Made by a program: the position numbers and the translations under genes. From the NCBI GenBank assembly GCA_046757025.1, contig JBHHXN010000135.1, positions 1 to 14,534 of the forward strand: a DNA stretch of 14,534 nt, given 5' to 3'. Below the pieces are notes generated by a model. That model was not told the origin of the DNA. It was given only the letters and a program-made list of their open reading frames with translations, and did no database searches. Positions 1 to 14,534 of this stretch are shown here, piece after piece. How positions within the stretch are numbered: the first letter of the stretch is position 1; the number at the start of each line of letters is the position of its first letter. Origin of the DNA: a bacterium (GTDB taxonomy: Bacteria; Zhuqueibacterota; Zhuqueibacteria; Oceanimicrobiales; Oceanimicrobiaceae).

Positions 1-110
1 ATTCATCAGCTTGACCTTTTTTGTTTTTGTTTAAATTATCTATGTGCGAAACTTGAGGTATTAACATTTAAAATATTTTTGGTTAGTCTTAATCCCAACC
101 GGCCATTCTT

Positions 111-635
111 TTATTCCGAATCGTATTCGATGAGCGAATGCACGGTGTAGTTGCGTAATTTATCCCGCCCTTTCAAAAAGTTTAACTCAATCAAAAAAAC
201 GACGCCGCTTACCACACCGCCAAGTTTTTCCACCAAATTGACCGTGGCTCTCGCGGTGCCACCTGTGGCCAGCAAATCATCGACCACCAGCACCCGCTCG
301 CCCGACAGAATGCCGTCTTTGTGAATTTCTAAACTGTCCGTGCCGTATTCAAGCTCATATTCTTCGGCGACCGATTCAGCAGGCAGTTTGCCTGGCTTTC
401 TCACGGGAACAAAGCCAATTTTCCACTTGTAAGCCAGCGCAGCGCCAAAAACAAATCCGCGCGATTCAATACCGACGATTTTGTCGATTTTTTGTGGGTC
501 GAATTTTGCAGAAATTTCTTCAATTGAACGGTAAAAGGCTTCGCCGTCTTTCAACAGTGTGGTGATGTCCTTGAAGCCAATTCCCTTTTTGGGAAAATCG
601 GGTACATTTCTAATATACTGTTCTAAATTCGCCAT
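111..635 (-). CDS. apt: adenine phosphoribosyltransferase
   Basis: Motifs PDFPKKGIGFKDIT, GIESRGF, RKPGKLP, YELEYG and PRPP-binding VLVVDDLLATGGT; AGGAG RBS upstream. Confidence 0.97.
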   Translation of the reverse strand: MANLEQYIRNVPDFPKKGIGFKDITTLLKDGEAFYRSIEEISAKFDPQKIDKIVGIESRGFVFGAALAYKWKIGFVPVRKPGKLPAESVAEEYELEYGTDSLEIHKDGILSGERVLVVDDLLATGGTARATVNLVEKLGGVVSGVVFLIELNFLKGRDKLRNYTVHSLIEYDSE

Positions 636-655
636 AAAGCCGCTCCTGATTGAAA

Positions 656-931
656 TTAAAATTCCACCTTAAATGATGTAAAGTGACCGGTAAAATCGCC
701 TCTACTTTCTTGAACATGTTCGACCCTTGAAAAAGTCGGTCCCTTTTTGATAATGGCGATCAGCTTCTCTATACCATCTTCCTCTCCTTCTGCCACCACT
801 TCCACCGAGCCATCGAACATGTTTTTGACATACCCTTGCAAATGCAAATGTTCAGCTTGCCGTACCACAAACCATCGAAAGCCAACCCCCTGAACTCTTC
901 CTTGGACATTTAGTTTCACAGAAATCATCAT
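656..931 (-). CDS. acyP: acylphosphatase
   Basis: GRVQGVGFR and [17 protein letters not shown] signatures; ~90 aa; start at 931 or 928. Confidence 0.95.
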
Positions 932-932
932 A

Positions 933-1388
933 TCAGGAGATCAATTCAAAAACTTTTTTAACCGCTTCATCTGCACTTTCTGCCACTACCATTGCCGGGT
1001 CAATGGACCAGGTTTTTAAGCCAATAAGGGGGACTTGAAATTTTAAACAAAATGAAATCTCGGAAAGCGTGCCAAATTCTCCGTCGATGGCGATGACCGC
1101 GTCGGCAGTTCGCACGATGATGAGGTTCCTCGCCACTCCTAATCCGGTGGCGATGGCAATGTCCACAAACGGATTGGCATCGGCTTTCTGGCTGCCGGGC
1201 AAAATTCCGATGGTAGTGCCGCTTTTCGATTTGGCGCCTCGACATGCGGCTTCCATCACCCCAGTTAAACCACCGCAAACCAAAAGCGCGTGGTTTTCAG
1301 CGATGCCTTTTCCCACTTCTTCCGCAAGTTGTGCAATTTCTGTGGAGCACCGGCCTCCACCAATGACGCCTATGATTTTTTTTGTCAT
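933..1388 (-). CDS. TIGR00725-like / LOG-family (SLOG) nucleotide-binding protein
   Basis: [36 protein letters not shown]. Start moved to ATG 1388 (MTKKIIGV), 2 nt after the asnS stop, instead of 1457, which would overlap asnS. Confidence 0.88.
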
Positions 1389-1390
1389 AG

Positions 1391-2686
1391 CTACGGATAC
1401 AATCTGTGCATCAATCGTGGAAATGGGATGGTTTCTCGAACATGGCTCAGCCCGCAAAGCCAGGCAACGGTGCGTTCAATCCCCAAACCAAAACCGGAGT
1501 GCGGCACGCTGCCGTACCGCCGCAGGTCGAGATACCACCGGAACGCCTCTTTGGGCAATTCGTGTTCTTCTAATTTGCGTTCTATAACCTGCAAGTCATC
1601 TTCTCTCTGTCCGCCGCCGATGATTTCACCGTATCCTTCAGGCGCCAACATATCCACACTTAACGAACGGTCCGGCTCGACTGGATCATTTTTCATGTAA
1701 AAGGCTTTCACCTGAGCGGGATAGCGGTGCACCAGCACCGGGCTTTCGAATTGATTCGAAATCACGGTTTCATCGGTGCCGCCAAAATCGTTGCCCCATT
1801 CGAATTCGATGTTGTTTTTTTTCAGAATATCGACGGCTTCATCGTATTTAATTCTCGGGAACGGTTTTTTGATTTTTTCCAGGGCCTGCACGTTTCTTTC
1901 GATGATCTTTAATTCTTCCCGACGGTTTTCCAGAACCCGTTCAACGATGTAGGCGATAAAATCTTCGGCCAAATCCATGTTGCCGTCCAGATCCTGATAA
2001 GCGACTTCGGGCTCGATCATCCAGAATTCCGTTAGATGCCGTCGGGTTTTGGATTTTTCTGCGCGAAAGGTCGGACCGAAACAGTACACCTTGCCAAAGG
2101 CCATGGCGCCGGCTTCCATGTAAAGCTGTCCGCTCTGCGTTAGATAGGCTTTGGTGTCGAAATAATCGGTTTCGAACAGCGTGGTGGTGCCTTCGCAGGC
2201 GGCCGGAGTAAATATGGGGGCGTCGATGAGAACAAAACCACGTTCATCAAAAAAGTTGCGGCACGCCCGGATTATCTCATGCCGGATTTTGAGGATGGCG
2301 TTTTGTTTGGACGATCGCAGCCAGATATGCCGGTGATCCATCAAAAAAGTGGTGCCATGCTCTTTAGGGGTAATGGGATATTCCTGAGCCATCTGAATGA
2401 TTTTCAAGTCGGTTAACTGCAGTTCATATCCGCTGGGGGCGCGTTTGTCTGCACGTACTTTTCCAGAAACGACAATTGAAGATTCCTGTGTGGCTTCTTC
2501 ACAGCGCTGGAAAATCGCATCCCCCACGTCTCCTTTGAAAGCCACCGCCTGAATGATGCCGGTGCCATCACGCACCTGTAAAAACCACAGTTTGCCGCTG
2601 GATCGTTTGTTGTACAGCCAGCCCGCAATCTTCACTTCTTGGTCGTCGTGTTGTGAAACATCTGAGATATAAATCTTGTCTTTCAT
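1391..2686 (-). CDS. asnS: asparagine--tRNA ligase
   Basis: OB-fold N-terminus ([22 protein letters not shown]), [56 protein letters not shown]; start ATG 2686 or TTG 2689. Confidence 0.96.
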
Positions 2687-2725
2687 CAAATTCTACCTTT
2701 TTCGAAATAACTAGTACTTTATTTT

Positions 2726-3562
2726 TTATTTACATAGCAAGAGAGGAATCTTTGCGTGTCGCATGATTTGCTCCGTGATACTGCCTAAAATCGCCTCCCT
2801 GATTCTGGAATGGCCAAATGCCCCCATCACAATAAAATCGCATTTTTGTTCCTGAGCCACTGCAATGATTTCTTTGTCAGGTTGGCCGGACTTGCCGATT
2901 AAATCTATGAGGATGCCGTACGGTTCCAGATAAATCTGAGCCTCCTGCAAATGTTTGTTTTGCATCTGCTCATTTTCACTCACAGTGACTACGCAAACCG
3001 GCGCCTGCAATTTAACCGCAAAAAAGCCTGCCATTTGCAGCGCTTTGTTTGCCTTGCTGCTGCCATCGTACGCGATGAGAATTTTTGAGATTCTTTTAAA
3101 ATTTTTTGGACAAATTACGATGGGTTTCGGGCATTGCCGCGCCACCGCTTCCAGGGTCGCACCTACCATTTTGCTCTCCCAGCGTGCAAATTCACCGCGT
3201 GTGCCGATGATGAGTAAATCGACTAATTTTGATTTTTCAATGATGATGTCTGCAGGTGGGCCGTGAATTTTATCTGTTTCGAAATCGAGACGTTCTCTTT
3301 GGATGATAGAAGCACATTTTTTCAGCACGGCGTCCGCTTTGGCTTCCAACATCGCTTTCGATTCTTGCTGATATACAGTGGACGGAATAACCGGCACAAA
3401 TCCGTCCGTTGCCATGGTAGTAACCCACTCAAAGATGCGCACATCCACAATGGAGATCACATTGATTTTCGAACCAAAGGCTTTACCCAATTGAATGGCG
3501 TATTTGAGCTGCGCGTTGGTGTATGCGGAACCGTCCACAGAAAGCAATATCGATTTTATCAA
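2726..3562 (-). CDS. tandem-domain universal stress protein
   Basis: Two USP domains: IKSILLSVDGS...DLLIIGTRG and KILIAYDGS...DFIVMGAFGHSRIREAILGSITEQIM. Likely start is TTG 3562, with GGGGA upstream, just after the gpsA stop; the ORF track gives 3586. Confidence 0.9.
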   Translation of the reverse strand: MIKSILLSVDGSAYTNAQLKYAIQLGKAFGSKINVISIVDVRIFEWVTTMATDGFVPVIPSTVYQQESKAMLEAKADAVLKKCASIIQRERLDFETDKIHGPPADIIIEKSKLVDLLIIGTRGEFARWESKMVGATLEAVARQCPKPIVICPKNFKRISKILIAYDGSSKANKALQMAGFFAVKLQAPVCVVTVSENEQMQNKHLQEAQIYLEPYGILIDLIGKSGQPDKEIIAVAQEQKCDFIVMGAFGHSRIREAILGSITEQIMRHAKIPLLLCK

Positions 3563-3569
3563 GACCTTA

Positions 3570-4565
3570 TTATCCCCAATCTTCAAATTTGGCAGCGCGG
3601 GTCATCAAATCAAAAACCGCTTGTTGCGGATCTTTATTTTGAAACAGCACTTTATAGGCCTCTGTGATGATGGGCACTTCGACGTCGTTCTTTGCTGCCA
3701 GCTCGTAAGCGGATTTAGTTGTTTTGACACCCTCAGCCACCATAACCATTTCTGACAAAACCTGTTCAAGTGATTTGCCCTTGCCGATTTGCTCGCCAAG
3801 ATGGCGGTTGCGGCTGTATTTGCTCATACAGGTGACGATCAAATCACCCATGCCGGACAATCCGGCAAAGGTTAAAGAATCGGCGCCTAATTTCGTACCT
3901 AATCGTGTGATCTCGGCCAACGCTCTGGTGATCAAAGCCGCTTTAGTATTGTCGCCGGCTCCGACCCCATCGATGATACCGGCCGCTACCGCGATGATAT
4001 TTTTTAATGCACCGCCATATTCCACGCCGATGACGTCTTTGTGCAAATAAACTCGGAACACCGATGACATAAAGGTTTTATGAACCATTTTAGCAGTTTC
4101 GATGTTGCTGGAAGCACAAACCACGACCGTGGGAACGCCCCGGCTGACCTCCTCAGCGTGACTGGGGCCGGCTAACACAGCGATTTGATTTTCATCAAAT
4201 CGTTCCATCAAAATCTGGCTGACGCGCAGCAGCGTGTCGTTTTCAATGCCTTTGGCCACACTGATGATGATGGTCTCTTTATTAACTTCACTGAATTCGC
4301 TCATCACCGAACGCACTGCATGGGATGGTACTGAAATGACGATGATTTCATTTTGAGAAACCAATGCCGGCAGGTCGCTTGAAGTTTTGATTTCCTCTGA
4401 TAACAAAACCCCGGCCAGATACTTTTTGTTGACCCTGTCAACAGCAATGGACCGAATCACTTCCGGGTCCCGATCCCACATGGTAACCTCGTTACCGTTT
4501 TTTTGTAGAAGCAGAGCCAGCGCCGTGCCCCAACTGCCTGAACCAACTATGCCTACTTTTGCCAA
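3570..4565 (-). CDS. gpsA: NAD(P)H-dependent glycerol-3-phosphate dehydrogenase
   Basis: GSGSWGTALA, AKGIE, GPSHAEEV, GALKNIIA, GDNTKAALITR, GDLIVTC.S..SRNR; TTG start with AAGGAG RBS. Confidence 0.97.
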   Translation of the reverse strand: MAKVGIVGSGSWGTALALLLQKNGNEVTMWDRDPEVIRSIAVDRVNKKYLAGVLLSEEIKTSSDLPALVSQNEIIVISVPSHAVRSVMSEFSEVNKETIIISVAKGIENDTLLRVSQILMERFDENQIAVLAGPSHAEEVSRGVPTVVVCASSNIETAKMVHKTFMSSVFRVYLHKDVIGVEYGGALKNIIAVAAGIIDGVGAGDNTKAALITRALAEITRLGTKLGADSLTFAGLSGMGDLIVTCMSKYSRNRHLGEQIGKGKSLEQVLSEMVMVAEGVKTTKSAYELAAKNDVEVPIITEAYKVLFQNKDPQQAVFDLMTRAAKFEDWG

Positions 4566-4587
4566 AATTTCTCCTTTATGGGTTTGA

Positions 4588-5592
4588 TTATTTTATCGAG
4601 CCAATTTTTTGTGCTTGTTCACCGACTGATTCACACTCAGATAAAATAAAATCCACGGCGTTTTTTTCAACAATTAATATGAGTCCCATGCCCATATTGA
4701 ATACGGATTGCATTTCAGATTCTGGCACTTGACCGGCCTCCTGGATAAATCGAAAAATGGCCGGCGCTTCCCACGCATTCCAATCAATTACCGCTCGAAG
4801 ATCGTCTCGCAGCAGACGGGTGGTGTTGCCAATCATACCGCCGCCCGTGATGTGGGCAATCCCATGCATCGCGTCCGATTCTCGAACACGTCGAATCAGG
4901 GTTTGATAAAGACGGTGCGGTTTCAGCAACTCCACACCGAGCTGCGATTTCGTTTCGGGGATGACGTAATTCAGATCGAATTTATTTTGTTCAAACAGGG
5001 CTTTCCGTGCAAGAGAGTAGCCGTTGGTGTGCAACCCGTTTGAGGCCACGCCAATTAAAGCATCCCCGCTCTGAATTCGGCTGCCATCGATGATGCGATC
5101 TCGTTCCACAATGCCGACGATGGCCCCCGCGATGTCAAAGTTGTGTTTAGCGTACACGCCGGGCATTTCGGCGGTTTCGCCGCCGATGAGAGTGCATTCT
5201 GCGCTTTGGCTGGCGCGGATGATGCCGCTGATAATTTCTGTGACGTTCTTCTCATGAAGCTTGTCGGCAGCGATGTAGTCGAGAATGAATAACGGTTCAG
5301 CCCCACATACCATGATGTCGTTTACGCAATGATTCACCAGGTCCTCACCCAAACTGGCAAACTGCTGCATCCGTTCCGCGATTTTCACTTTTGTGCCAAT
5401 GCCATCGATGCTGGAAACCAGTACCGGCTTTTCATATTTGTCCTTGTTAAGCGGATAAAACCCAGAGAATAAACCGATCCCATGCAGATTATCTTCGCCA
5501 CAGGATTGGTCGGTAAGTGCACGAATGGATGCTTTGATTTTATCGCTGGTATTTAAATCGACGCCAGCAGATTTGTAATTTATCTCACTCAT
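4588..5592 (-). CDS. purM: phosphoribosylformylglycinamidine cyclo-ligase (AIR synthetase)
   Basis: YKSAGVD, DGIGTK, HCVNDI, GGETAEMPG, SNGLHTNGYSL, AHITGGG, FNMGMG. Confidence 0.97.
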   Translation of the reverse strand: MSEINYKSAGVDLNTSDKIKASIRALTDQSCGEDNLHGIGLFSGFYPLNKDKYEKPVLVSSIDGIGTKVKIAERMQQFASLGEDLVNHCVNDIMVCGAEPLFILDYIAADKLHEKNVTEIISGIIRASQSAECTLIGGETAEMPGVYAKHNFDIAGAIVGIVERDRIIDGSRIQSGDALIGVASNGLHTNGYSLARKALFEQNKFDLNYVIPETKSQLGVELLKPHRLYQTLIRRVRESDAMHGIAHITGGGMIGNTTRLLRDDLRAVIDWNAWEAPAIFRFIQEAGQVPESEMQSVFNMGMGLILIVEKNAVDFILSECESVGEQAQKIGSIK

Positions 5593-6136
5593 TCAAGCAT
5601 TTTAACTGCCGGTAATAGACATTTCTGATTTTATGAAAGAATCGCTTCATAGCTGGCGATTGATAATCGGCGTAGGTCCAATCATTTGCCACAAATTGGC
5701 CTCCACGGTATCGCAACTGCACGTCTCCGTAAATTCCTTTGCCCAAATAAATTCGATGGTCAAAGTTTTTAGTCGATGCAACCACAATTTTCGCCAACTC
5801 TAAATACGACGGATCCAAATTGATTTGACGTTTGCCAGATTGCGCAAACGCTTGTTCTAATTTAATAGAAAATAACTTCCATTCCACTAAATTATCTTTT
5901 TTATTCAATTGGGTAAAGCTAAAAAACTGCTTCATCAAATTCAGTCCCATTTCTTGAGCATAATAGGAAGTGTGATCAAATTTAAAAACTTCGCACTGAT
6001 AGTCGATGTTTCCAAATTGCTCTTCGAAAGTTGAAATCGATTGCTTTAATACATCTTCATGGCGAAAAGTCGCGGCTAAAAGATATTTAACGGGTTCAGG
6101 TTCTGGCAACTCGATTTTTCTTTTAGAGTTATCCAA
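5585..6136 (-). CDS. conserved hypothetical protein, DUF4416-like
   Basis: PEPVK...F.HTSYYAQEMG.NL, RQINLDPSYL, VVASTKNFDHRIYLGKGIYGD and WTYADY resemble DUF4416 members; overlaps both neighbours by 8 nt. Confidence 0.8.
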   Translation of the reverse strand: MDNSKRKIELPEPEPVKYLLAATFRHEDVLKQSISTFEEQFGNIDYQCEVFKFDHTSYYAQEMGLNLMKQFFSFTQLNKKDNLVEWKLFSIKLEQAFAQSGKRQINLDPSYLELAKIVVASTKNFDHRIYLGKGIYGDVQLRYRGGQFVANDWTYADYQSPAMKRFFHKIRNVYYRQLKCLNE

Positions 6137-6905
6137 GGATGGTTAATTCCCAAAATATGCCCAAAGTGACCATAAAGTGCACTAACATCGACAGATAGAT
6201 GCTGTTGGTTTTGTAAACAAGATAAGCCAAACCCATTCCAAACAAACTGCCAAAAATAATTCCCTCATTACCATTCGGAATGCCGATGCGATATTGCAGA
6301 AACCCATAAAAGAGGCCTTGTAACGGTATGGCGATTTTTACATTGGTGGCGGAAGCCATTCGCTCAAAAATAAAGCTGCGAAATAGGATCTCTTCGATGA
6401 TGGCTAAAAATATCGCCAGTCCGAAACCGATAATGATCAGCGTGTCGATGGGCCAACCGAGTGGAACCGGATTACGGATCTCGGTCTTTCGAAAATAAAT
6501 AAAAATACCATACGCCAACAAACTGCCCAGGGTGAAAAACAAAGACAATTTGAAATGTGCTTTTGTTTGGCCCGGATGAAAAAACAATCGGCTCCACTCT
6601 GGCCCTTCCAGAAAAATTAAAATGACTAAAATCGACAATACGATTATCAACGACTCGGGATAATCAATTCCAAGAATTCGAATAACAATCGAAATTAAAT
6701 AAAAAATAAATAAAATTTCAATAAATTTACTAAAGCTTTTGGTCGATTTTTTGAATCGTGTGAACAGAATTATCAAAAATAAGCTAGTCAGCAACAAAAA
6801 ACCATATCCAAAAAGATAGTTTTCGTAGCCAGTGAATGGCCGCCCGACTAAAAGGTAAAGACAAGAAGAAGCAAGGACGATCACAAAAGAAATGAAATTG
6901 ATCAT
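6129..6905 (-). CDS. CPBP/Abi (CAAX protease-like) multi-pass membrane protein, possibly with a degenerate active site
   Basis: Many hydrophobic segments; EEILFR motif 1, LFYGFLQY motif 2, SMLVHFMVT motif 3. Confidence 0.82.
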   Translation of the reverse strand: MINFISFVIVLASSCLYLLVGRPFTGYENYLFGYGFLLLTSLFLIILFTRFKKSTKSFSKFIEILFIFYLISIVIRILGIDYPESLIIVLSILVILIFLEGPEWSRLFFHPGQTKAHFKLSLFFTLGSLLAYGIFIYFRKTEIRNPVPLGWPIDTLIIIGFGLAIFLAIIEEILFRSFIFERMASATNVKIAIPLQGLFYGFLQYRIGIPNGNEGIIFGSLFGMGLAYLVYKTNSIYLSMLVHFMVTLGIFWELTILG

Positions 6906-6984
6906 GAACTAATAATGAGTAATTTTGAGTGAGAAATAATAAGGATAGATTAGTGGTTTCAAATTTCAGGTGCTATTAGAATTG

Positions 6985-7068
6985 TGCCGGGGGAGGGACT
7001 CGAACCCTCACGGACCGAGGTCCACTGGATTTTGAGTCCAGCGCGTCTGCCAGTTTCACCACCCCGGC
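6985..7068 (-). tRNA. tRNA-Leu(CAA)
   Basis: GCCGGGG acceptor, anticodon arm CTGGA-CT CAA AA-TCCAG, long variable arm, GGTTCGAGTCC T arm. Confidence 0.96.
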
Positions 7069-7120
7069 TATTCAAAAATTTGACTTCCTATCCCCCCCAT
7101 GAAAAATTTTGCAACCGCGG

Positions 7121-7207
7121 TGCCGAGGGCCGGACTCGAACCGGCACGGAGATAAATCTCCGAGGGATTTTAAGTCCCTTGTGTCTACCAAATTCCACCA
7201 CCCCGGC
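7121..7207 (-). tRNA. tRNA-Leu(TAA)
   Basis: Anticodon arm AGGGA-CT TAA AA-TCCCT, variable arm CGGAGAT-TT-ATCTCCG, GGTTCGAGTCC. Confidence 0.96.
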
Positions 7208-7238
7208 GCATGATTTGGCTTTTTGCCAATTAACTGAG

Positions 7239-7311
7239 AGGCGGCGATCGGATTCGAACCGATGAATAGAGGTTTTGCAGACCTCTGCCTTGGCCACTTG
7301 GCTACGCCGCC
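7239..7311 (-). tRNA. tRNA-Cys(GCA)
   Basis: GGCGGCG/CGCCGCC acceptor, U73 discriminator, GAGGT-CT GCA AA-ACCTC. Confidence 0.96.
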
Positions 7312-7317
7312 TTAGGC

Positions 7318-7355
7318 AAAAAAAGATCAGAGCCTTGCAGTGAAAACCCTGATCT
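7318..7355 (-). terminator. terminator-like hairpin in the tRNA-Gly/tRNA-Cys spacer
   Basis: Minus strand AGATCAGGGTTTT-CACTGC-AAGGCTCTGATCT (13 bp with 3 G-U pairs) followed by a T run. Confidence 0.55.
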
Positions 7356-7364
7356 AAATAGTTG

Positions 7365-7437
7365 AGCGGGAGACGGGATTCGAACCCGCGACCCTCACCT
7401 TGGCAAGGTGATGCTCTACCAGCTGAGCCACTCCCGC
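7365..7437 (-). tRNA. tRNA-Gly(GCC)
   Basis: GCGGGAG/CTCCCGC acceptor, U73, CACCT-T GCC A-AGGTG anticodon arm, GGTTCGAATCC. Confidence 0.96.
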
Positions 7438-7455
7438 AACGCTCTAAACGTGCAA

Positions 7456-7484
7456 AATATACCAAATAATTTAAAAGTATGCAA
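7456..7484 (-). promoter_or_regulatory. sigma-70-type promoter of the tRNA cluster
   Basis: TTGCAT-N17-TATATT, 18 nt upstream of tRNA-Gly. Confidence 0.7.
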
Positions 7485-7505
7485 GCAATTTTTCAGAAAA
7501 TATGG

Positions 7506-7643
7506 TTATTCTTCAGGCGGCTCACTCATCCGATCCAAGATTTTACGTCTTCTATTACGTACGGCTTTGTACAGAGTTTTGTTCTTTCTGCCAAACCAGA
7601 ATGCGATGAAAATTAACAATGAAATGATTGCAATTTTTATCAT
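7506..7643 (-). CDS. 45-aa single-pass membrane microprotein (not in the ORF track)
   Basis: Hand translation: MIKIAIISLLIFIAFWFGRKNKTLYKAVRNRRRKILDRMSEPPEE*; hydrophobic N-terminus followed by a basic tail. Confidence 0.6.
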   Translation of the reverse strand: MIKIAIISLLIFIAFWFGRKNKTLYKAVRNRRRKILDRMSEPPEE

Positions 7644-7773
7644 TTGCGAGTATAGTTATATTAAGATTTGATTAAATTAAAATTTTTCTCTTTCAAGATC
7701 AAGAAAAAATTATTATATTAAGTGACTATCCTCTAAGCTTTTATAACTTCAAAGTTCTCTCGGAGAATTGATT

Positions 7774-7953
7774 ATGGAAACCATTGATGTGAAAGAATTG
7801 ATTATTACTTGTGAAGCCTGTGGAAATGTAAAAAAGTTTACTGTGAAAGATGAGCAAGACTCTCAACTAATATTTAATGAATATTCCTGTGAAAATAATT
7901 GTGGAAGAAATCTCTACAGCTTTATAACAGTAGGTACACTTAAAAGAGATTGA
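7774..7953 (+). CDS. 59-aa small protein with four Cys (CxxC...CxxxC), putative metal-binding
   Basis: GGAGA RBS 7 nt before ATG 7774; CEACG and CENNCG. Confidence 0.72.
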   Translation: METIDVKELIITCEACGNVKKFTVKDEQDSQLIFNEYSCENNCGRNLYSFITVGTLKRD

Positions 7954-8184
7954 AAATAACATTTGTTAAAGCACAAGCCAATATGCTTAAATTCTAAAAG
8001 TTAGGAATTAAAAAATCAATCCCCAAACTAGAATCAGCCTATTTCTTTTCAATTGCAACAGTTATTAGTTTGGGTTAGCATATTCAGTTCCCCTGAATGC
8101 CATTTTCAGAATCCTATTTTTGACTTTCCTGTAGAATATAGTTGATATTACTTTTTAAAGACAGTTTGGAAGAAAGTTTGATAG

Positions 8185-8224
8185 AAAAACGAAAGCCCAA
8201 CTTAAGAATAAGTTGGGCTTTTTT
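8185..8224. terminator. bidirectional intrinsic terminator downstream of tRNA-Ala
   Basis: AAAGCCCAACTTA-AGAA-TAAGTTGGGCTTT perfect stem flanked by A and T runs. Confidence 0.88.
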
Positions 8225-8225
8225 G

Positions 8226-8299
8226 TGGAGCCGATGGGGATCGAACCCACGACCTCATGACTGCCAGTCATGCGCTCTCCCAAACTGAGCTACGGCCCC
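8226..8299 (-). tRNA. tRNA-Ala(GGC)
   Basis: GGGGCCG/CGGCTCC acceptor with G3:U70, CATGA-CT GGC AG-TCATG. Confidence 0.96.
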
Positions 8300-8340
8300 A
8301 TATTTGTTCGTAAAGATCTGAAAAACAAAAACCGCTGAAT

Positions 8341-8502
8341 TCACTTTTTCCAGTCAAACTCTTTGAGAAGCTTTTCCGCGATCTTTTCCGTTATCGCTTG
8401 AGTATGATAAAATCCATTCCAGAAGCGCTTGCGGATGATATCTAACTTTTTTTCCTTTTCGGATTTGACTATGTTAGTTAGTTCTCTAGTGATTTTAAAC
8501 AC
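8341..8502 (-). CDS. short FlgM-like (anti-sigma-28 C-terminal domain) protein, ~53 aa (not in the ORF track)
   Basis: Hand translation from GTG 8502: MFKITRELTNIVKSEKEKKLDIIRKRFWNGFYHTQAITEKIAEKLLKEFDWKK*. Resembles the FlgM pattern (R/K)xxKVxxIKxxIxxGxY...xxIAxKLL. Start is uncertain. Confidence 0.62.
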   Translation of the reverse strand: MFKITRELTNIVKSEKEKKLDIIRKRFWNGFYHTQAITEKIAEKLLKEFDWKK

Positions 8503-8852
8503 TCCCCTTTCATTTGACCAAAAGTCTTCTTTACAACACGCAATATAAAATTGACCGTGTGTAAAATTTCCTCAATGTTAAATTTCACTTTGGTGCGTGT
8601 TTCTTCAGGGATGTTACCTTTAAATTTACACCAACTTTTCTTAAAGTCAAGTATTTTTTTATGTTGGCCGTTAATTCTTTCTAATAATTTCAATTTTTCA
8701 TTATTTGTTTGCAGAAAATGAGCGAAATCATCCGCTTGCAATAATTTCGATTGACTGATAAAGAGGTTTTTTATGGCAGCCAAGGTGTGGGATTGTCTTT
8801 CCAATTCCACTACAACGATTTTGAGAAATGCCATTTCTAAACAAGAATTCAC
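8478..8852 (-). CDS. helical protein resembling the FlgN flagellar export chaperone
   Basis: Pattern LERQ...L..L...Q.KLL..DD...F...N.EK..LL..I resembles the FlgN N-terminal helices; ~120 aa; adjacent FlgM-like ORF; start GTG 8852 or ATG 8834. Confidence 0.5.
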   Translation of the reverse strand: MNSCLEMAFLKIVVVELERQSHTLAAIKNLFISQSKLLQADDFAHFLQTNNEKLKLLERINGQHKKILDFKKSWCKFKGNIPEETRTKVKFNIEEILHTVNFILRVVKKTFGQMKGECLKSLEN

Positions 8853-8891
8853 GATTTATCCACGGTAAAACGCACAGCCAATTTAATAGGA

Positions 8892-8919
8892 ATATCGTCA
8901 TACTGTTACCAAAGCTTTA
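8892..8919 (-). promoter_or_regulatory. sigma-28 (FliA/SigD)-type promoter
   Basis: TAAA-N16-GACGATAT versus consensus TAAA-N15/16-GCCGATA(A/T); extended -35 TAAAGCTT. Confidence 0.68.
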
Positions 8920-9008
8920 CATTTCTTCGCAGCGGGTAAATATTACTAAAATTCCGGGATTTCTGACGCTTGTTATTCCACCGCTGTTTACGGGATGCTC
9001 CAATTTTT

Positions 9009-12000
9009 TTAACAAATTACATCAAAATTGCCGGACAGCACGCGATCCAGATTGCCGGTACGCCAGAGCCGAACACTGTCCCGCACCAATGGGGAAGGCG
9101 CTTCCCGGTAGCGCCGGACGATGGCTAGTTTTTGATCTTTCATTTCAGAAAAAATGCGCAGAGCGTCGGCGCGATGAGCCGCTGAATCCGGCCCAAACGG
9201 CTCTTCTGGTTGAGGCGCAATTTGCACTCGCACTTTACATCGTACAAATCCGCGACCGTTGCCGGGAATCTCCAGTACATGCAATCCTGCTTCGGCTTCC
9301 AGGATCGTAAAAGCGGCAAAACCGCTAACTGAAAGCAGGAGTCGATAAGGTTGTTTTTTTGCGCCACCGGTTTCTTCCAACACAATCAAGTGCATCTTTC
9401 TGATTTCTGCCCATTGTCGATACATGACACCCAACTGTTTAGCGAATTGATTGGTTTGCACTATCTTCTTACCCGATTCCTTACTGGCGTTGATCAATAA
9501 AAAGGCATCGCGGGGGCGACCTTGTTCCAGGCCCGCACAAGCCGCGTCGATCAAATAGATTTGCTGGGCCAAGCGCTGTAAAATGTTTTTCGAGTAACGG
9601 GTTCTATCGCCGCGGTTGGAACCAACAATTCGATTTAGCAACGATGCCGCTGTGCTGAGTCCGGTCTCGATTCGGTCCATGTACTCCGCCAAACCCAGAA
9701 TCGCGAACCGCTGTGGTGAATTCCAGAAGTCGGAATTGGCGGTCTGGACCAGCGCAGATTGTTTTTGGTTCTGCCATTCATCGCTTTCCACCTGCGATTT
9801 AAGACGCTTATACTGACCTTGAAGAAATTCGACTTCTCCTGCGGTGCCGTGTGTGTCGAGTATCAACTTTTCAACACGAAAATCTTGTTCGGAAGGCATC
9901 GTTGCATTTTCTTCCGGTTCCACATCTGTTTCCAGCATTTCCTCCGGAGCATCGGGATCGATAAATTCCACCTTAATTTGCTGACCTTCGCTGCGCACAA
10001 AAAGAAATTGATCGCCTTCTGGAAATTGATGATTGACAATGGTTATGGCCAGCGGCGACAGCAAATAACGTTCGATGGCGCGTTTAAGCGGTCTGGCGCC
10101 GAGGTCGTAAGTGAATCCTTTTTTCAATAAAAAGTCAATGGCAGAATCGTCCCATTCTACCGCCCAGCTGCGTGTACGTAATCCTCTTCGGGTCAACACT
10201 TGATTCAATTCTTTTTGTAGAATTTGTTTCATCTCAGACGTTCCCAGAGGTTTAAAAACCACTACCCTGTCAAGGCGGTTGATAAATTCTTTCCGGAAGA
10301 CTTTGCTCACGGCGCGCTCCACGCTGCCGGCTGTGAAACCAGCACGGCCGTCTGAGAATCCAATGCTGGTACCCAACGGGATATTCGCCCCCAAATTTGA
10401 CGTCAAAATAATGATGCTGTGGCGGAAATCTGCCGTGTTTCCGCGAGTATCCGTGAGCCGACCATCATCAAACACCTGCAGAAATAAATCCCAAATGTTC
10501 TGGTGCGCTTTTTCAAATTCGTCCAGCAGCAGCACCGAAAAGGGCTGATTGCGAATTAAATTCACCAATGCGGTTTTTTCTGTCGTTTCTTGCTGACTTC
10601 CGAGCAATCTGGAAAGACTTTCGGGAGTCTGGAATTCGCTCATGTCCAACCGAATCATGCGTTGTGGTGAACCAAATAAAAACTCCGTGAGCGCTTTCAC
10701 GATTTCTGTTTTACCCGTACCAGTCGGGCCCACAAATAAAAACACGCCCTGCGGACGCGTGGGATCGGTCAGTCCGGCTTTTATCATGGCCACGCGCTCA
10801 ACCAGACAGTCGATGGCCTCTTTTTGACCGAGCACTCGTTCCTGAAAAAACTCCCGCAGTGCCTGCAAATCCAGCCCTTGGCGGTCATCGAGGATGTTTG
10901 CAGGCAGACCGGTGAGCTGTGTGAGGGTGAGCAGCAGCTCATCCCGAGAAATGGGCTCGTTGGACTTGGTTTCCTGTGATAAACTGCGTCTGTGCGTGAG
11001 CTTCAGTAATTGCAGCAAGTTTCCCGGCAGCGCTCGGTCACCCAGATACTGTGTGGTCAATTGCACCGCTTCCGAAAGCGTTTGCTCGGAAATACAGGGC
11101 GCTCCGTCTGGAAGTTTGAAATTGACCAACCACTCTCTGGCCACCCCCGTCGCTTCCTGATTGCTCAATGGGTTGATGCGGTAGGTTTCGATGATGGACG
11201 TTAACCGCGGTTTCATCAATAACAATTGTTCAAAACTCAGGGGCCGGGTTTCACCGATGATGGTGATTTCCCCGTTTTCCACATAAGGCAGAATGTAATC
11301 CAGCACACCAGTTGGGCTGTATCGGTTGCGTCCAGCCCAGGCTAATTCATGAATATCCGGCACAATCCAAAGCACTTTGCGATCGCCGGAGATGTTTCTC
11401 ACCAATTGCAGCAGCCGCTCTTCCAACTGCCCGATATAAACTCGACCGGACAACAAATCCACTCCACCCGCTTCGAAAATCAGCCATCCATGCAGACGCA
11501 TGCGCTCGGCTAACACCCGCAAAGTAGCGGTTTTGCCCACGCCGGATTCGCCGACTAAGATACCCGAGCGAGGAGGTTGTTTCATGAGAGCTGCTTCCAG
11601 TGCATCCACGTGCGCCTGCAAATAATCGTGAGGGATGATCCGATTTTTTTCAGACGTTTCATTCCCATCCCAAATTCGGCCGAAAGTTTTTAAAAAGTCG
11701 ATATTTACATGCGTGAGGCGCCACTGCTGCAATTCTGCCATCAAACCAGGGCACAGTTTTTTCCCGCCAAGTTTGTCCAGCAGCTTTTCAAGATTATTCA
11801 CTTTCGCAGCGGTAAAATTATTCAACGAGGCACCAAAAGTCGGCGTTTCCCCCTCTTCCTGCCGGTCCGTGATGAATTCTTTTAAGATTGCAATCATTTC
11901 GCTGTCTACCCACCACTCGTCTTCGATGTTGCCGATGTGTGCCAGTAACGCTCCCACAACGGGTTCGGCAATGCGCTCAGCCAGCACCCGAAAAGCAAAG

Positions 12001-12392
12001 TAGCGGGTCCAGTAATTGCTTATGTTGATGGAGGAAAGTATCGGGGTCAGAATTTCGTCCCCATTTTTGCGGCGGGCCAGAGCAGCCAGAGCCATCCAGG
12101 CTACATAGGAATTCTCACCGGTGTAGTAGGACAGCAGTTCTTGCGTCGAATAATTCAGGCTGTTGAAATGGTCAATCCCTTGCTTAAAAGCAGGAAGGTG
12201 GAGTAGGTCCCGTGGATGTGCCGCTTCTCCACTTTCATTTTTAAGTTGCTCGGCGATGGCGTACAGATCGGTGGGATTCTTTTCAACGGGATATTTTTCC
12301 TGATTGAACCGTTCCCGGATGATAGAAAATATGAAATAGGCCACACCACCGATTATCAATACGATGAAGAAGTCCATGAGTATGAGCGACAC
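9009..12392 (-). CDS. membrane-anchored ClpA/C-like double AAA+ ATPase fused to an RF2-like (PCRF) release factor module lacking GGQ
   Basis: N-terminal hydrophobic helix; GESGVGKT; GPTGTGKT, RLDMSEF, LLLDEFEKAH, GRLTD, TSNLG, IGF, EFINRLD, GARPLKR; C-terminal DFWN.P, MYRQWAE, LEAEAGLH, IVRRY...P..LVRD.....TGN...VL.G.FD. Start may be ATG 12377, since AGGAGG overlaps the GTG at 12392. Confidence 0.88.
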   Translation of the reverse strand: MSLILMDFFIVLIIGGVAYFIFSIIRERFNQEKYPVEKNPTDLYAIAEQLKNESGEAAHPRDLLHLPAFKQGIDHFNSLNYSTQELLSYYTGENSYVAWMALAALARRKNGDEILTPILSSINISNYWTRYFAFRVLAERIAEPVVGALLAHIGNIEDEWWVDSEMIAILKEFITDRQEEGETPTFGASLNNFTAAKVNNLEKLLDKLGGKKLCPGLMAELQQWRLTHVNIDFLKTFGRIWDGNETSEKNRIIPHDYLQAHVDALEAALMKQPPRSGILVGESGVGKTATLRVLAERMRLHGWLIFEAGGVDLLSGRVYIGQLEERLLQLVRNISGDRKVLWIVPDIHELAWAGRNRYSPTGVLDYILPYVENGEITIIGETRPLSFEQLLLMKPRLTSIIETYRINPLSNQEATGVAREWLVNFKLPDGAPCISEQTLSEAVQLTTQYLGDRALPGNLLQLLKLTHRRSLSQETKSNEPISRDELLLTLTQLTGLPANILDDRQGLDLQALREFFQERVLGQKEAIDCLVERVAMIKAGLTDPTRPQGVFLFVGPTGTGKTEIVKALTEFLFGSPQRMIRLDMSEFQTPESLSRLLGSQQETTEKTALVNLIRNQPFSVLLLDEFEKAHQNIWDLFLQVFDDGRLTDTRGNTADFRHSIIILTSNLGANIPLGTSIGFSDGRAGFTAGSVERAVSKVFRKEFINRLDRVVVFKPLGTSEMKQILQKELNQVLTRRGLRTRSWAVEWDDSAIDFLLKKGFTYDLGARPLKRAIERYLLSPLAITIVNHQFPEGDQFLFVRSEGQQIKVEFIDPDAPEEMLETDVEPEENATMPSEQDFRVEKLILDTHGTAGEVEFLQGQYKRLKSQVESDEWQNQKQSALVQTANSDFWNSPQRFAILGLAEYMDRIETGLSTAASLLNRIVGSNRGDRTRYSKNILQRLAQQIYLIDAACAGLEQGRPRDAFLLINASKESGKKIVQTNQFAKQLGVMYRQWAEIRKMHLIVLEETGGAKKQPYRLLLSVSGFAAFTILEAEAGLHVLEIPGNGRGFVRCKVRVQIAPQPEEPFGPDSAAHRADALRIFSEMKDQKLAIVRRYREAPSPLVRDSVRLWRTGNLDRVLSGNFDVIC

Positions 12393-12428
12393 CTCCTGTT
12401 TTAAAACTCGATGAGAACCGTTCTTGAG

Positions 12429-12479
12429 ATGCAGGATGAAAGGAATTGTGTTTTAGAAATGCGAGATGTAAAGGAATTG
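12429..12479. repeat. imperfect ~20-bp direct repeat in the leader of the Clp-RF gene
   Basis: atgcaggatg-aaaggaattg (12429-12448) and atgcgagatgtaaaggaattg (12459-12479). Confidence 0.6.
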
Positions 12480-12482
12480 GAA

Positions 12483-12511
12483 AATATAGGATGATTGCTC
12501 AGAAAAAGCAA
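12483..12511 (-). promoter_or_regulatory. sigma-70-type promoter of the Clp-RF gene
   Basis: TTGCTT-N17-TATATT, just downstream of the tRNA-Arg terminator. Confidence 0.65.
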
Positions 12512-12534
12512 ACAATTTGTGAATTTAAGCAAAT

Positions 12535-12565
12535 AAAAAAGCTCCCAGAATACGAGAGCCTTTTT
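12535..12565 (-). terminator. intrinsic terminator after tRNA-Arg
   Basis: Minus strand GGCTCTC-GTATTCT-GGGAGCT followed by TTTTTATTT; A run on the other side. Confidence 0.75.
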
Positions 12566-12589
12566 ACACCCCTATTAAGATATTTTTAG

Positions 12590-12653
<64 letters not shown>

Positions 12654-12663
<10 letters not shown>

Positions 12664-13538
12664 ATAAATTGTTTCGCGGCTTGCACGGTGTTTTGCATCA
12701 GCATGGCGATGGTCATGGGACCCACGCCGCCCGGCACCGGCGAAATGGCCGCGGCTTTTTCCACTACGCTGTCAAATTCCACATCGCCAACGATGCGATA
12801 GCCTTTCTCAGCAGCCGCGTCCTCCACCCGGTTCACGCCCACATCGATGACCACCGCGCCGTGTTTTATCATGTCAGCGGTGATCACTTCCGGCCGGCCC
12901 ATGGCCGCGATCAGAATATCCGCCTGCGATGTAATTTCGCTCAAGTCGCGCGTTCCCGTGTGGCAAACGGTGACCGTGGCATTGGCACCGGGCTTCTTTT
13001 GAACAAAAATGGCGGATAGCGGCAGCCCCACAATCTTGCTGCGACCGACGATCACCACGTGTTTGCCTGCGGGATCGATGTCGCTGCGCAACAGCATTTC
13101 GTGCACGCCCAGCGGTGTGCAGGGTACGAAGGTCTTCTCCCCTGCTACCAATTTACCGCGATTTTCCGGATGAAATCCGTCAACGTCTTTCTCCGGCGTC
13201 ACAGCGTTGATCACGCGATTTTCATCGATGTGCGCTGGCAGCGGCAATTGCACCAGAATGGCATGCACTCGATCATCCTCGTTCAGCTCGGCGATGCTGG
13301 CCAGCAAGTGCTCCTGCGAAAGGTCTGCTGGAAAATCAATGGTTTGCGAATGTATCCCCAGTTCCTCACAGGCACGCGATTTCATTTTAACATAAATTCT
13401 GGACGCCGGATTCTCCCCTACCAGCACCACGGCCAGGCTGGGAGGGCAGCCGCGTTGTTTTAACTCATCGACATCCTTTTTCAAGTGCTGCTTGATTCCC
13501 GCCGCGATTTTTTTCCCATCTATTATTTTTGCAGTCAT
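12654..13538 (-). CDS. folD: bifunctional methylenetetrahydrofolate dehydrogenase/cyclohydrolase
   Basis: AKIIDGK, YVKMK, LVQLPLP, KDVDGFHP, PCTP, GRSKIVGLP, PVPGGVGPMTIAML; start taken as ATG 13538. Confidence 0.97.
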
Positions 13539-13552
13539 GGCGTTCAACCTGC

Positions 13553-14347
13553 TTACGGCAAGCTAAGTCTTTCAATGCTGGTCGCTTTACCCGTCTCGGC
13601 AGCGATGGACACCACCACCGCGCAAAATTTCAGATCATTTTCTGCTGTTAGATAACGACTGGGCGTCTGTCGAATAAAGCGATTGATGGCAATTTCTTTT
13701 TTCATGCCCAAAACCGAATCATACGGCCCGGTCATACCGGCGTCGGTGATGTAGGCAGTACCCTCTGGTAAAATTTTTTCATCCGCCGTTTGTATGTGGG
13801 TGTGGGTACCCACCAGGGCGCTCACTTTGCCATCCAGATACCAGCCCATGGCGACTTTTTCTGCCGTGGCCTCAGCGTGAAAATCGACAAAAATAATTTT
13901 CGTAAATTTTTGAATGCGCTTAACCTCGGCCAACCCTCTTCTAAACGGGCAATCGATGGAATATAAATAAGTTCGTCCTTGGAGATTTACCACGGCTATT
14001 TTTACGCCCTCTGTCATTTCCACAATGGTCGAGCCGTGACCGTAATTTCCATCCGGATAATTTAACGGCCTGAGTATGCGATCGCTGTTTTGCAGCATTT
14101 CATAGATGTCTTTGTTGTACCAGATATGATTACCACTGGTAATGACATCGATACCCACATTAAAATAATTTCGGGCAATTTTTTGAGTAAGCCCTTTGCC
14201 GTTGCAACCGTTTTCTCCGTTAGCAATACAGAAGTCGATTTTGTACTTCTCCTTCACCGAAGGGGTAATTTTCGAAGCAATCTCTAGGCCTGGTTTGCCA
14301 ACGATGTCTGCGATAAAAAGAATTCTGACTTCTTTACTCTTGCTCAA
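13553..14347 (-). CDS. ymdB: YmdB-like (TIGR00282) metallophosphoesterase
   Basis: DIVGKPG, ANGEN, TSGNHIW, RPLNYP, VDFHAEATAEK, GTHTHIQTADE, TDAGMTGP..SVLG. Confidence 0.93.
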   Translation of the reverse strand: MSKSKEVRILFIADIVGKPGLEIASKITPSVKEKYKIDFCIANGENGCNGKGLTQKIARNYFNVGIDVITSGNHIWYNKDIYEMLQNSDRILRPLNYPDGNYGHGSTIVEMTEGVKIAVVNLQGRTYLYSIDCPFRRGLAEVKRIQKFTKIIFVDFHAEATAEKVAMGWYLDGKVSALVGTHTHIQTADEKILPEGTAYITDAGMTGPYDSVLGMKKEIAINRFIRQTPSRYLTAENDLKFCAVVVSIAAETGKATSIERLSLP

Positions 14348-14534
14348 TTTTTTAAGTGCGGTTTTAATCTATTACATTGACATGAATTTAAACAGATTGA
14401 TATTAAAAATCAACAACTGATTGAAGATTGTTTAGTGTCGATCTGTAAAGAGCCTTTTTTTGTCATTCCCACAATCTTTAAGCAGGGATTTTTTTAGGGC
14501 CATTTATTTGACTTTTGGTTAATTAAATCGAAAA

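Follow-up and report, generated by a model that had tools for sequence, protein, structure and literature searches.

In bacteria, the release-factor paralogues that have been surveyed (RF1, RF2, ArfB and PrfH) all keep the catalytic glutamine (PMC6514570). Two of them, ArfB (YaeJ) and PrfH, are derivatives produced by domain loss that act in ribosome rescue, ArfB being reduced to the hydrolase domain and PrfH lacking domain 1, and both retain GGQ (PMC6514570, PMC1586002). The unrelated aeRF1 fold includes release-factor paralogues that work on ribosomes without catalysis, namely Dom34/Pelota and, as has been proposed, the inactive baeRF-1; Vms1, of the same fold and with its catalytic glutamine kept, ties a release-factor domain to the AAA+ chaperone Cdc48 in trans (PMC6514570). 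The chloroplast protein PrfB3 is derived from RF2, has lost both tripeptides and no longer terminates translation; it is a stand-alone plant protein without ATPase that binds the petB 3' untranslated region (PMC5897788). Here we analyse a gene that joins an RF2-derived tail to a Clp-type tandem ATPase. It lies at 9009..12377 on the minus strand of a 14,534-nucleotide stretch (the window; contig JBHHXN010000135.1 of assembly GCA_046757025.1, positions 1 to 14,534) from a bacterium of the family Oceanimicrobiaceae, phylum Zhuqueibacterota.

The reading frame stays open up to a GTG at 12392 (9009-12392 (-), 1127 residues). The ATG at 12377 is the likelier start because this GTG overlaps an AGGAGG ribosome-binding site, and the product from the ATG matches a database record of the same 1122 residues; residue numbers below count from the GTG. 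From N- to C-terminus, the protein comprises a predicted transmembrane segment, a helical N-domain, Clp D1, Clp D2, a linker and the RF2-derived tail. A first-pass annotation made from the sequence alone had singled out the final 100 codons of this long minus-strand frame, omitting that the tail belongs to a Clp-type double ATPase predicted to be anchored in the membrane. The gene encodes a folded RF2 body, devoid of catalytic and decoding elements and maintained under selection, which a flexible linker attaches to the C-terminal end of an atypical Clp ATPase. Compared with RF2 (PrfB; Pfam PCRF PF03462 and RF-1 PF00472), the tail shares the fold of domains 1, 2 and 4 but lacks the GGQ domain, the SPF tripeptide, the alpha5 GG tip and the switch-loop Trp, is about 70 residues shorter, more basic and fused to a Clp ATPase. 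The family inverts the known pattern, in that the release-factor body is kept, the catalytic domain is dropped and the remainder is joined to an atypical Clp motor, the reverse of what is seen in ArfB and PrfH. Databases name these proteins only 'ClpC' or 'AAA family ATPase', although the domain pair PF07724 and PF03462 is on record.

Each motif quoted by the first-pass annotation is confirmed in the translated frame 9009-12392 (-). P1062 and I1091 are separated by a GGQ-free stretch of 28 residues; this spacer (9123..9206 (-)) replaces domain 3 and the switch loop, is also devoid of the switch-loop Trp, and holds a helix (residues 1070-1083, 9144-9185 (-)) that is present in both structure models. 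The segment from the ExGxH motif to the RxY strand of domain 4 measures 52 residues here, as does the family median, versus 122 in all RF2 (22 measured of 29) and RF1 (8 measured) sequences, so that some 70 residues are missing. Consistently, the family profile matches the host's own RF2 in two pieces, 21-181 and 281-336, and skips domain 3. On the decoding side, VLEIPGNGRG comes after EAGLH, and a loop whose tip is variable in the column profile (9249..9278 (-)) takes the place of the SPF/PxT tripeptide. The sequence SKESGKKIVQ stands where the GAGG/GG motif of the alpha5 tip would be (9456..9485 (-), just outside the interval covered by the annotation), the GG of that tip being the element that reads the first stop-codon position (PMC1586002); motif roles are taken here from PMC1586002 and 10.1101/091256.

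These losses are shared by the whole family. Searches with the tail returned 704 proteins of 619-1973 residues and, separately, 690 clusters at 50% identity, 462 of them matched at E <= 1e-10, so that the family counts at least 462 clusters. Motif counts were made on the best-scoring matches (the best 120 of 704, 150 of 690 and 120 of 229), in sets that contain fragments and near-duplicates, and a rare GGQ-bearing ancestor could sit among the lower-ranked ones. The spacer has a median of 28 residues and no GGQ in 268 of 269 aligned homologues, so that neither chance nor local decay accounts for the deletion. Close homologues with a retained GGQ, the observation that the annotation had named as telling against itself, did not turn up: after further search (369 proteins), GGQ follows ExGxH in 0/355 anchored homologues and is absent from the last 95 residues of the 14 unanchored ones, while in the four homologues with GGQ in their last 300 residues the motif lies upstream of ExGxH. 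The RF2-type tripeptide SP[FY] occurs in 0/268 homologues, a chance P.T in 7/268, the switch-loop WG before the RxY strand in 0/268 and the alpha5 G[AST]GG in 2/268. The loss of the stop-codon tripeptide therefore stands, as does the replacement of the GAGG loop; the claim that the whole of domain 3 is gone holds for GGQ and the 70 or so missing residues but not for helix 1070-1083, which stays and is probably a remnant of alpha7.

The remaining C-terminal 290 residues or so adopt the RF2 fold. The tail was modelled with a predicted local distance difference test (pLDDT) of 91.5, and the model superposes on free E. coli RF2 (1GQE) with a Z-score of 20.7 and a root-mean-square deviation of 4.9 over 273 residues. 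The top structural matches are class-I release factors only, unrelated folds reaching a Z-score of 10.7 or less and PrfH structures matching less well (Z 10-11). Domain 1, a helical hairpin or bundle (residues 836-956, 9525..9887 (-)), was delimited from the TIGR00020 prfB match and by alignment to E. coli RF2; at its hairpin, an FW pair (F889 and W890, 9714-9728 (-)) is invariant in 100% of 34 sampled homologues. The fold of domain 2 is retained (residues 961-1062, 9207..9512 (-); PCRF at E 1.6e-5, profile match to RF2 with probability 99.7), and domain 4 (residues 1091-1127, 9012..9122 (-)) is the best conserved part of the tail, with 73% pairwise identity, and has gained arginines. Residues 857-1040 match the prfB model and E. 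coli RF2 is matched at E 4e-5. In profile-profile alignments, which extend through domain 4, RF2 is preferred over RF1 (E 2.4e-25, probability 99.7, versus 3.1e-13). A FastTree phylogeny on 183 columns, rooted with RF1 as outgroup and computed without a mis-extracted 'RF1' row (L074), groups 34 tails into one long-branch clade that is sister to 29 RF2 and apart from 8 RF1, with a support of 1.0. Sequence comparison thus supports an RF2 origin for the tail, in a clade nested in none of the sampled RF2 groups and with about 23% identity to RF2 on shared columns.

The tail resembles the compact rather than the extended form of RF2. Compact E. coli RF2 forms align over 266-273 residues, including the pre-accommodated ribosome-bound factor (272 residues for 6OST, 266 for 5MDW), versus about 250 for most of the extended, ribosome-bound forms. 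The gap is about the size of the spacer helix 1070-1083, which the profile alignment sets on the start of alpha7. On the basis of this difference in aligned length and of the profile alignment, the helix is likely an alpha7 stub resting on the domain-2 sheet, as in closed RF2. Its best sequence register in both RF2 and RF1 is indeed alpha7, but fits no better than shuffled sequences (567 and 339 of 1000). Lost, then, are the GGQ loop and the sheet of domain 3, together with the switch loop and the remainder of alpha7, but some trace of domain 3 is probably kept. At strand 1049-1063 (9204-9248 (-)), which comes directly behind the anticodon loop, a domain-3 strand of RF2 fits better than the domain-2 strand (10.3 versus 4.2; 38/1000 shuffles), while in the comparison with RF1 the better fit is to the domain-2 strand, and significance is lost when the window is shortened, the result not being significant overall; the deletion may have fused strands of domains 2 and 3 at this point.

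Selection acts on the tail: of six close pairs, five give ratios of nonsynonymous to synonymous substitution rates (dN/dS) of 0.16-0.31 and the sixth a ratio of 0.57. Such purifying selection, together with the family-wide loss of the same parts, argues that the tail is not a product of decay. The proposal of the annotation, a non-catalytic module in which domains 1 and 2/4 stay folded and conserved, agrees with the model quality, the structural match and these ratios. Of the 50 columns that are invariant in RF2, the tail retains 17 (FW, MYxxW, ExGxH, RxY, VxD and a G), and these look structural. Mean pairwise identities, compared between tail and RF2 sets that differ in taxa, are 73% versus 66% in domain 4, 45% versus 71% in domain 2 and 43% (51% in the hairpin) versus 33% in domain 1. 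Relative to RF2, the net charge is higher both in domain 4 (+2.6 versus -2.0) and in domain 1 (-2.8 versus -12.6), a basic shift that would suit RNA.

The remainder of the protein is a Clp-type motor with several anomalies. The fold of residues 231-813 is that of a tandem ATPase of the Clp/Hsp100 type (Z 25-30), within a full-length model of pLDDT 88 and predicted template modelling score (pTM) 0.63. A predicted N-terminal transmembrane anchor (residues 6-25, 12318..12377 (-)) corresponds to a hydrophobic segment in a model helix spanning residues 2-30; 151 of 192 full-length homologues also have a hydrophobic N-terminal segment (KD19 >= 1.8), and basic residues come after the anchor, for which reason the bulk of the protein would lie in the cytoplasm. 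The all-helical N-domain (residues 40-230, 11703..12275 (-); helices at pLDDT about 90) is weakly HEAT-like (HEAT_2 at E 5e-4, below the cut-off), and its Atlas matches reach only 0.76, a lead at most; residues 1-231 have no Clp_N match at E <= 0.1. In D1 (residues 231-500, 10893..11702 (-)), Walker A and the pore-loop aromatic are present but the Walker B acids and arginine fingers are gone, the degenerate Walker B reading WIVPD (11355..11369 (-)) versus LFIDE in ClpB and ClpC. Among the 192 full-length homologues, Walker A is found in 179, the pore aromatic in 183, the Walker B DE in 0 and RRF in 1, whereas the host's ClpB and ClpC retain the D1 Walker B and arginine-finger motifs. D1 is accordingly predicted from its motifs to be ATPase-dead.

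D2 (residues 505-811, 9960..10880 (-)) has Walker A, Walker B, the arginine finger and sensor 2 intact (AAA_2 at E 2e-43; Clp/Hsp100 folds at Z 25-30), the four motifs occurring in 185, 185, 192 and 192 of the 192 homologues. Its pore loop (10569..10604 (-)) is devoid of the GYVG motif (0/192, any aromatic in 17/192), which the host's ClpB and ClpC both have. A D2 loop bears an IGF motif (10356..10364 (-)), conserved as [ILVM]GF in 184/192 homologues, present in the host's ClpC and absent from its ClpB. Such loops dock ClpA, ClpC and ClpX on ClpP. A complex prediction for D2 (residues 500-812) with two ClpP copies scored 0.10, with a mark of 0.32, and was used neither for nor against docking. 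An acidic linker (residues 812-835, 9888..9959 (-)), predicted to be disordered (pLDDT < 50 at 818-831), tethers the tail and is mostly 20-39 residues long across homologues. These features predict a membrane-bound, ClpP-compatible motor that would hydrolyse ATP in D2 alone and grip in an unusual way.

Nearly all of the 192 homologues carry their ATP-hydrolysing motifs in a ring that lacks an aromatic pore loop (D2) and their pore aromatic in a ring stripped of the Walker B acids and arginine fingers (D1), a division of grip and hydrolysis that is unusual for a Clp ATPase.

The fusion shares with the class-I Hsp100 proteins ClpA and ClpC the tandem D1-D2 fold, intact D2 ATPase motifs, the IGF loop and the absence of a ClpB-type middle domain (the ClpA model matches in one stretch, the ClpB model in two). 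It differs from them by the predicted anchor and helical N-domain in place of Clp_N repeats, by the loss of the D1 Walker B and arginine fingers and of the D2 GYVG, and by the RF2 tail; ClpB, for its part, has a coiled-coil middle domain and no IGF loop, whereas the fusion has IGF and no middle domain. Scores fall far below the NCBIfam Clp cut-offs, and on defining features the fusion belongs neither to RF2 nor to ClpA, ClpB or ClpC. It is undescribed in the full-text literature searched, a search that left most subscription papers outside. 'Clp' and 'PCRF' appear in neither the main text nor the one supplement of the main survey of bacterial release-factor paralogues (PMC6514570), and they occur in PMC5581361 separately, not as a fusion. 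The aeRF1-fold systems offer a functional analogy only.

We infer that the tail is a binding arm. Our leading, still tentative, proposal is that this non-catalytic, codon-blind arm aims the Clp motor at ribosomes. On the ribosome, compact RF2 can have its SPF unbound and its GGQ off the peptidyl-transferase centre, with domain 1 on the L11 stalk, a state observed with the help of ArfA (10.1101/091256). The known partners of release-factor domain 1 are L11 and RF3 (PMC3677378, for RF1; PMC1586002). RF3 is encoded by only 3/26 carrier genomes and was not found in the host genome, so RF3 does not account for the retention of domain 1. A ribosomal target is favoured because the tail appears to preserve, in full, the closed shape with which RF2 comes into the A site ahead of codon reading, because domain 1, which contacts the L11 stalk, is kept without RF3, and because the surface has become more basic. 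The retention of the entire RF2 body, not of a single sub-domain, counts in the same direction, as do the conservation of domain 1, the low dN/dS in most close pairs, the precedent of non-catalytic paralogues in the aeRF1 fold and the position of the flexible linker, which joins the N-terminus of the release-factor module. In release factors this N-terminus lies on the outer face of the ribosome.

Under this proposal, a predicted membrane-anchored Clp-type hexamer would be brought to ribosomes by the tail arm, which would stay in the compact conformation that RF2 has on first entering the A site; domain 1 would then lie at the L11 stalk and the more basic domain 4 on ribosomal RNA. D1 would bind ATP without splitting it, D2 would drive the ATP cycle, and the IGF loop would couple the ring to ClpP, which is encoded in 26/26 genomes checked, as expected anyway. 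The likely outcome would be that membrane-associated stalled or idle ribosomes, or nascent chains, are remodelled or cleared, with no peptidyl-tRNA hydrolysis by the tail. A more elaborate version is slightly less probable: a membrane AAA+/ClpP machine displaying six dead mimics of closed-state RF2, which would sense stalled or vacant A sites without a stop codon and couple them to remodelling or proteolysis. If true, this would constitute a ribosome quality-control route distinct from tmRNA, ArfA/ArfB/BrfA, PrfH-RtcB and RqcH, and binding to ribosomes would in itself connect the A site, directly and physically, with AAA+ proteolysis at the membrane.

Several observations weigh against a ribosomal target. 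All the known decoding-centre contacts are gone (SPF 0/268, GG tip 2/268, switch Trp 0/268) and 33 of the 50 RF2-invariant columns are not kept, while 13 family-specific invariant residues, five of them arginines, have appeared in domains 1, 2 and 4, meaning that the surface of the tail has been re-purposed. The spread is patchy: a full tail is found in 1/21 genomes of the host's own family (one more has a contig-end fragment), in 4/151 genomes of the phylum sample, plus one contig-end fragment, and in 2/41 genomes of an Acidobacteria order. No translation gene recurs beside the fusion in 26 loci. As to the motor, canonical threading into ClpP appears doubtful because D2 has no gripping aromatic loop and D1 no hydrolysis, aromatic pore loops being what grips the substrate (PMC7226402). 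Finally, PrfB3, which alone among RF2 derivatives lacking SPF and GGQ has been studied, binds the 3' untranslated region of an mRNA (PMC5897788).

This last precedent underlies a close, if itself rather unlikely, rival, in which the RF2 fold was co-opted as in PrfB3 and binds for the membrane Clp motor either a non-ribosomal RNA (an mRNA end, a small RNA or a tRNA) or a protein substrate or adaptor. The loss of decoding contacts and of any translation neighbour fits such a target, as do the new invariant basic and aromatic residues (R895, R907, R921, R1104, W1110 and R1111), the move of conservation from domain 2 (45%) to domain 4 (73%), and the presence of a PrfB3 cluster, as a lead only, among feature look-alikes at 0.87. 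In that Atlas cluster of 374-residue PrfB3, 82% of members match PF00472, so domain 3 appears to be kept there; we assume that the fusion tail and PrfB3 arose independently. Yet a complete three-domain shape, domain 1 included, exceeds what simple RNA binding needs, and neither a conserved RNA nor a conserved partner gene is found near the fusion gene. If the target is not the ribosome, the family would be a second independent case, after PrfB3, of RF2 reused as a binding module, on a Clp ATPase unable to thread in the textbook way.

A third explanation, which we regard as more doubtful, would have the tail act within the system itself, either as an internal regulator of its own ring, in the manner of the ClpB middle domain, or as a decoy that draws phage or toxin proteins aimed at RF2 and then switches the motor on. 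The lack of a middle domain of its own counts in favour. Tail-length relatives are nearly all D2-bearing or fragments on short contigs, with no clear stand-alone tail (a few on long contigs are ambiguous), and one full copy per genome is found in 25/25 carriers. Named carriers include Calditrichia, KSB1, Acidobacteriota, Gemmatimonadota, Planctomycetota, Actinomycetota, Deltaproteobacteria, Spirochaetaceae and Hyphomicrobiales, the nearest kin with the fusion gene being genomes labelled candidate division KSB1, and this patchiness across phyla, together with the location of the present gene between tRNA-Arg and tRNA-Ala genes, would also speak for this explanation. The disordered linker predicted here, and the pTM of 0.63 at a pLDDT of 88, however, fit a loosely tethered arm; only one of the 39 flanking open reading frames scanned, which are of mixed functions, is a toxin-antitoxin gene, PADLOC matches are limited to the generic D2, and neither an attachment-site repeat nor a plasmid copy is seen.

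In 26 loci, including one from a genome (G151) that also supplies one row of alignment A3, no conserved neighbour was found beyond close relatives or lineage-level synteny. A mobile element was rejected as an origin of the locus, with no attachment-site repeat, no plasmid match, and promoter and terminator counts near chance; a defence system was likewise set aside, as the PADLOC matches cover only the generic D2 domain.

Very improbable is a split release factor, suggested by the first-pass annotation and made up of a ribosome-docked tail and an ArfB that contributes the GGQ domain in trans. The domains are indeed complementary and the host genome, 95% complete, encodes ArfB on another contig. 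The ArfB model NF006718 detects a homologue in 12/26 carrier genomes (11/25 without G151) but misses divergent GGQ proteins in Acidobacteria, so we rely on the broader count, in which any stand-alone GGQ-domain protein is found in 16/25 carriers. Nine of 25 carriers have none, although RF1 and RF2 were both recovered in seven of these nine; among the nine is G170, assembled to chromosome level. The rate does not exceed the one in the window's phylum (90/151, not a matched control); most carriers are incomplete metagenome-assembled genomes, and kin among them are not independent. ArfB is absent among the 39 flanking frames scanned, and it acts as a single component, filling the decoding centre with its own tail (PMC6514570). 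These counts show that the fusion has no obligate link to a stand-alone GGQ protein, rather than that it avoids one, and the idea of ArfB as a partner in trans is not sustained.

An accidental fusion to a decaying RF2 pseudogene, for which only the identity of about 23% to RF2 and the long branch would speak, is refuted by conservation across phyla, hundreds of homologues sharing the same deletion size and invariant residues, and by a dN/dS well below 1 and a well-folded model (pLDDT 91.5), leaving it a negligible chance.

Some observations concern the carriers. Five Acidobacteria carriers encode short stand-alone RF-1-domain proteins of 90-141 residues (G160:C11, G162:C261, G172:C19, G164:C187 and G163:C563) that miss NF006718 at 1e-20 and possibly represent a divergent ArfB-like group. 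At two loci (L038:2601-5926 and L027, about 8001-8855), the fusion looks split or frameshifted, with the tail in frames of 624 and 669 residues. At another (L024:2226-2348), a second domain-4 fragment of 41 residues lies downstream of the fusion gene and adjoins a MazF/PemK-like toxin gene.

In the host genome, normal RF1, RF2 and ArfB genes are each found on other contigs, and the genome also encodes its own ClpC and ClpB and one ClpP. Within the window, tRNA-Arg(CCG) flanks the fusion gene on one side, the start of the gene lying about 210 bp downstream of it, and tRNA-Ala(GGC) lies on the other side beyond one small open reading frame; they belong to six tRNA genes (Leu, Leu, Cys, Gly, Ala and Arg) at 6984-7437, 8225-8299 and 12589-12663 (-). 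The G+C content is about 50% in the fusion gene versus 34-36% at 7500-9000. The small frame between the fusion gene and tRNA-Ala (8478-8852 (-)) is low in G+C and encodes 124 residues with no Pfam match at E <= 1e-6. At 7768-7953 (+), a further frame of about 60 residues, also without a Pfam match at that threshold, carries two CxxC/CxxxC pairs and is possibly a zinc ribbon.

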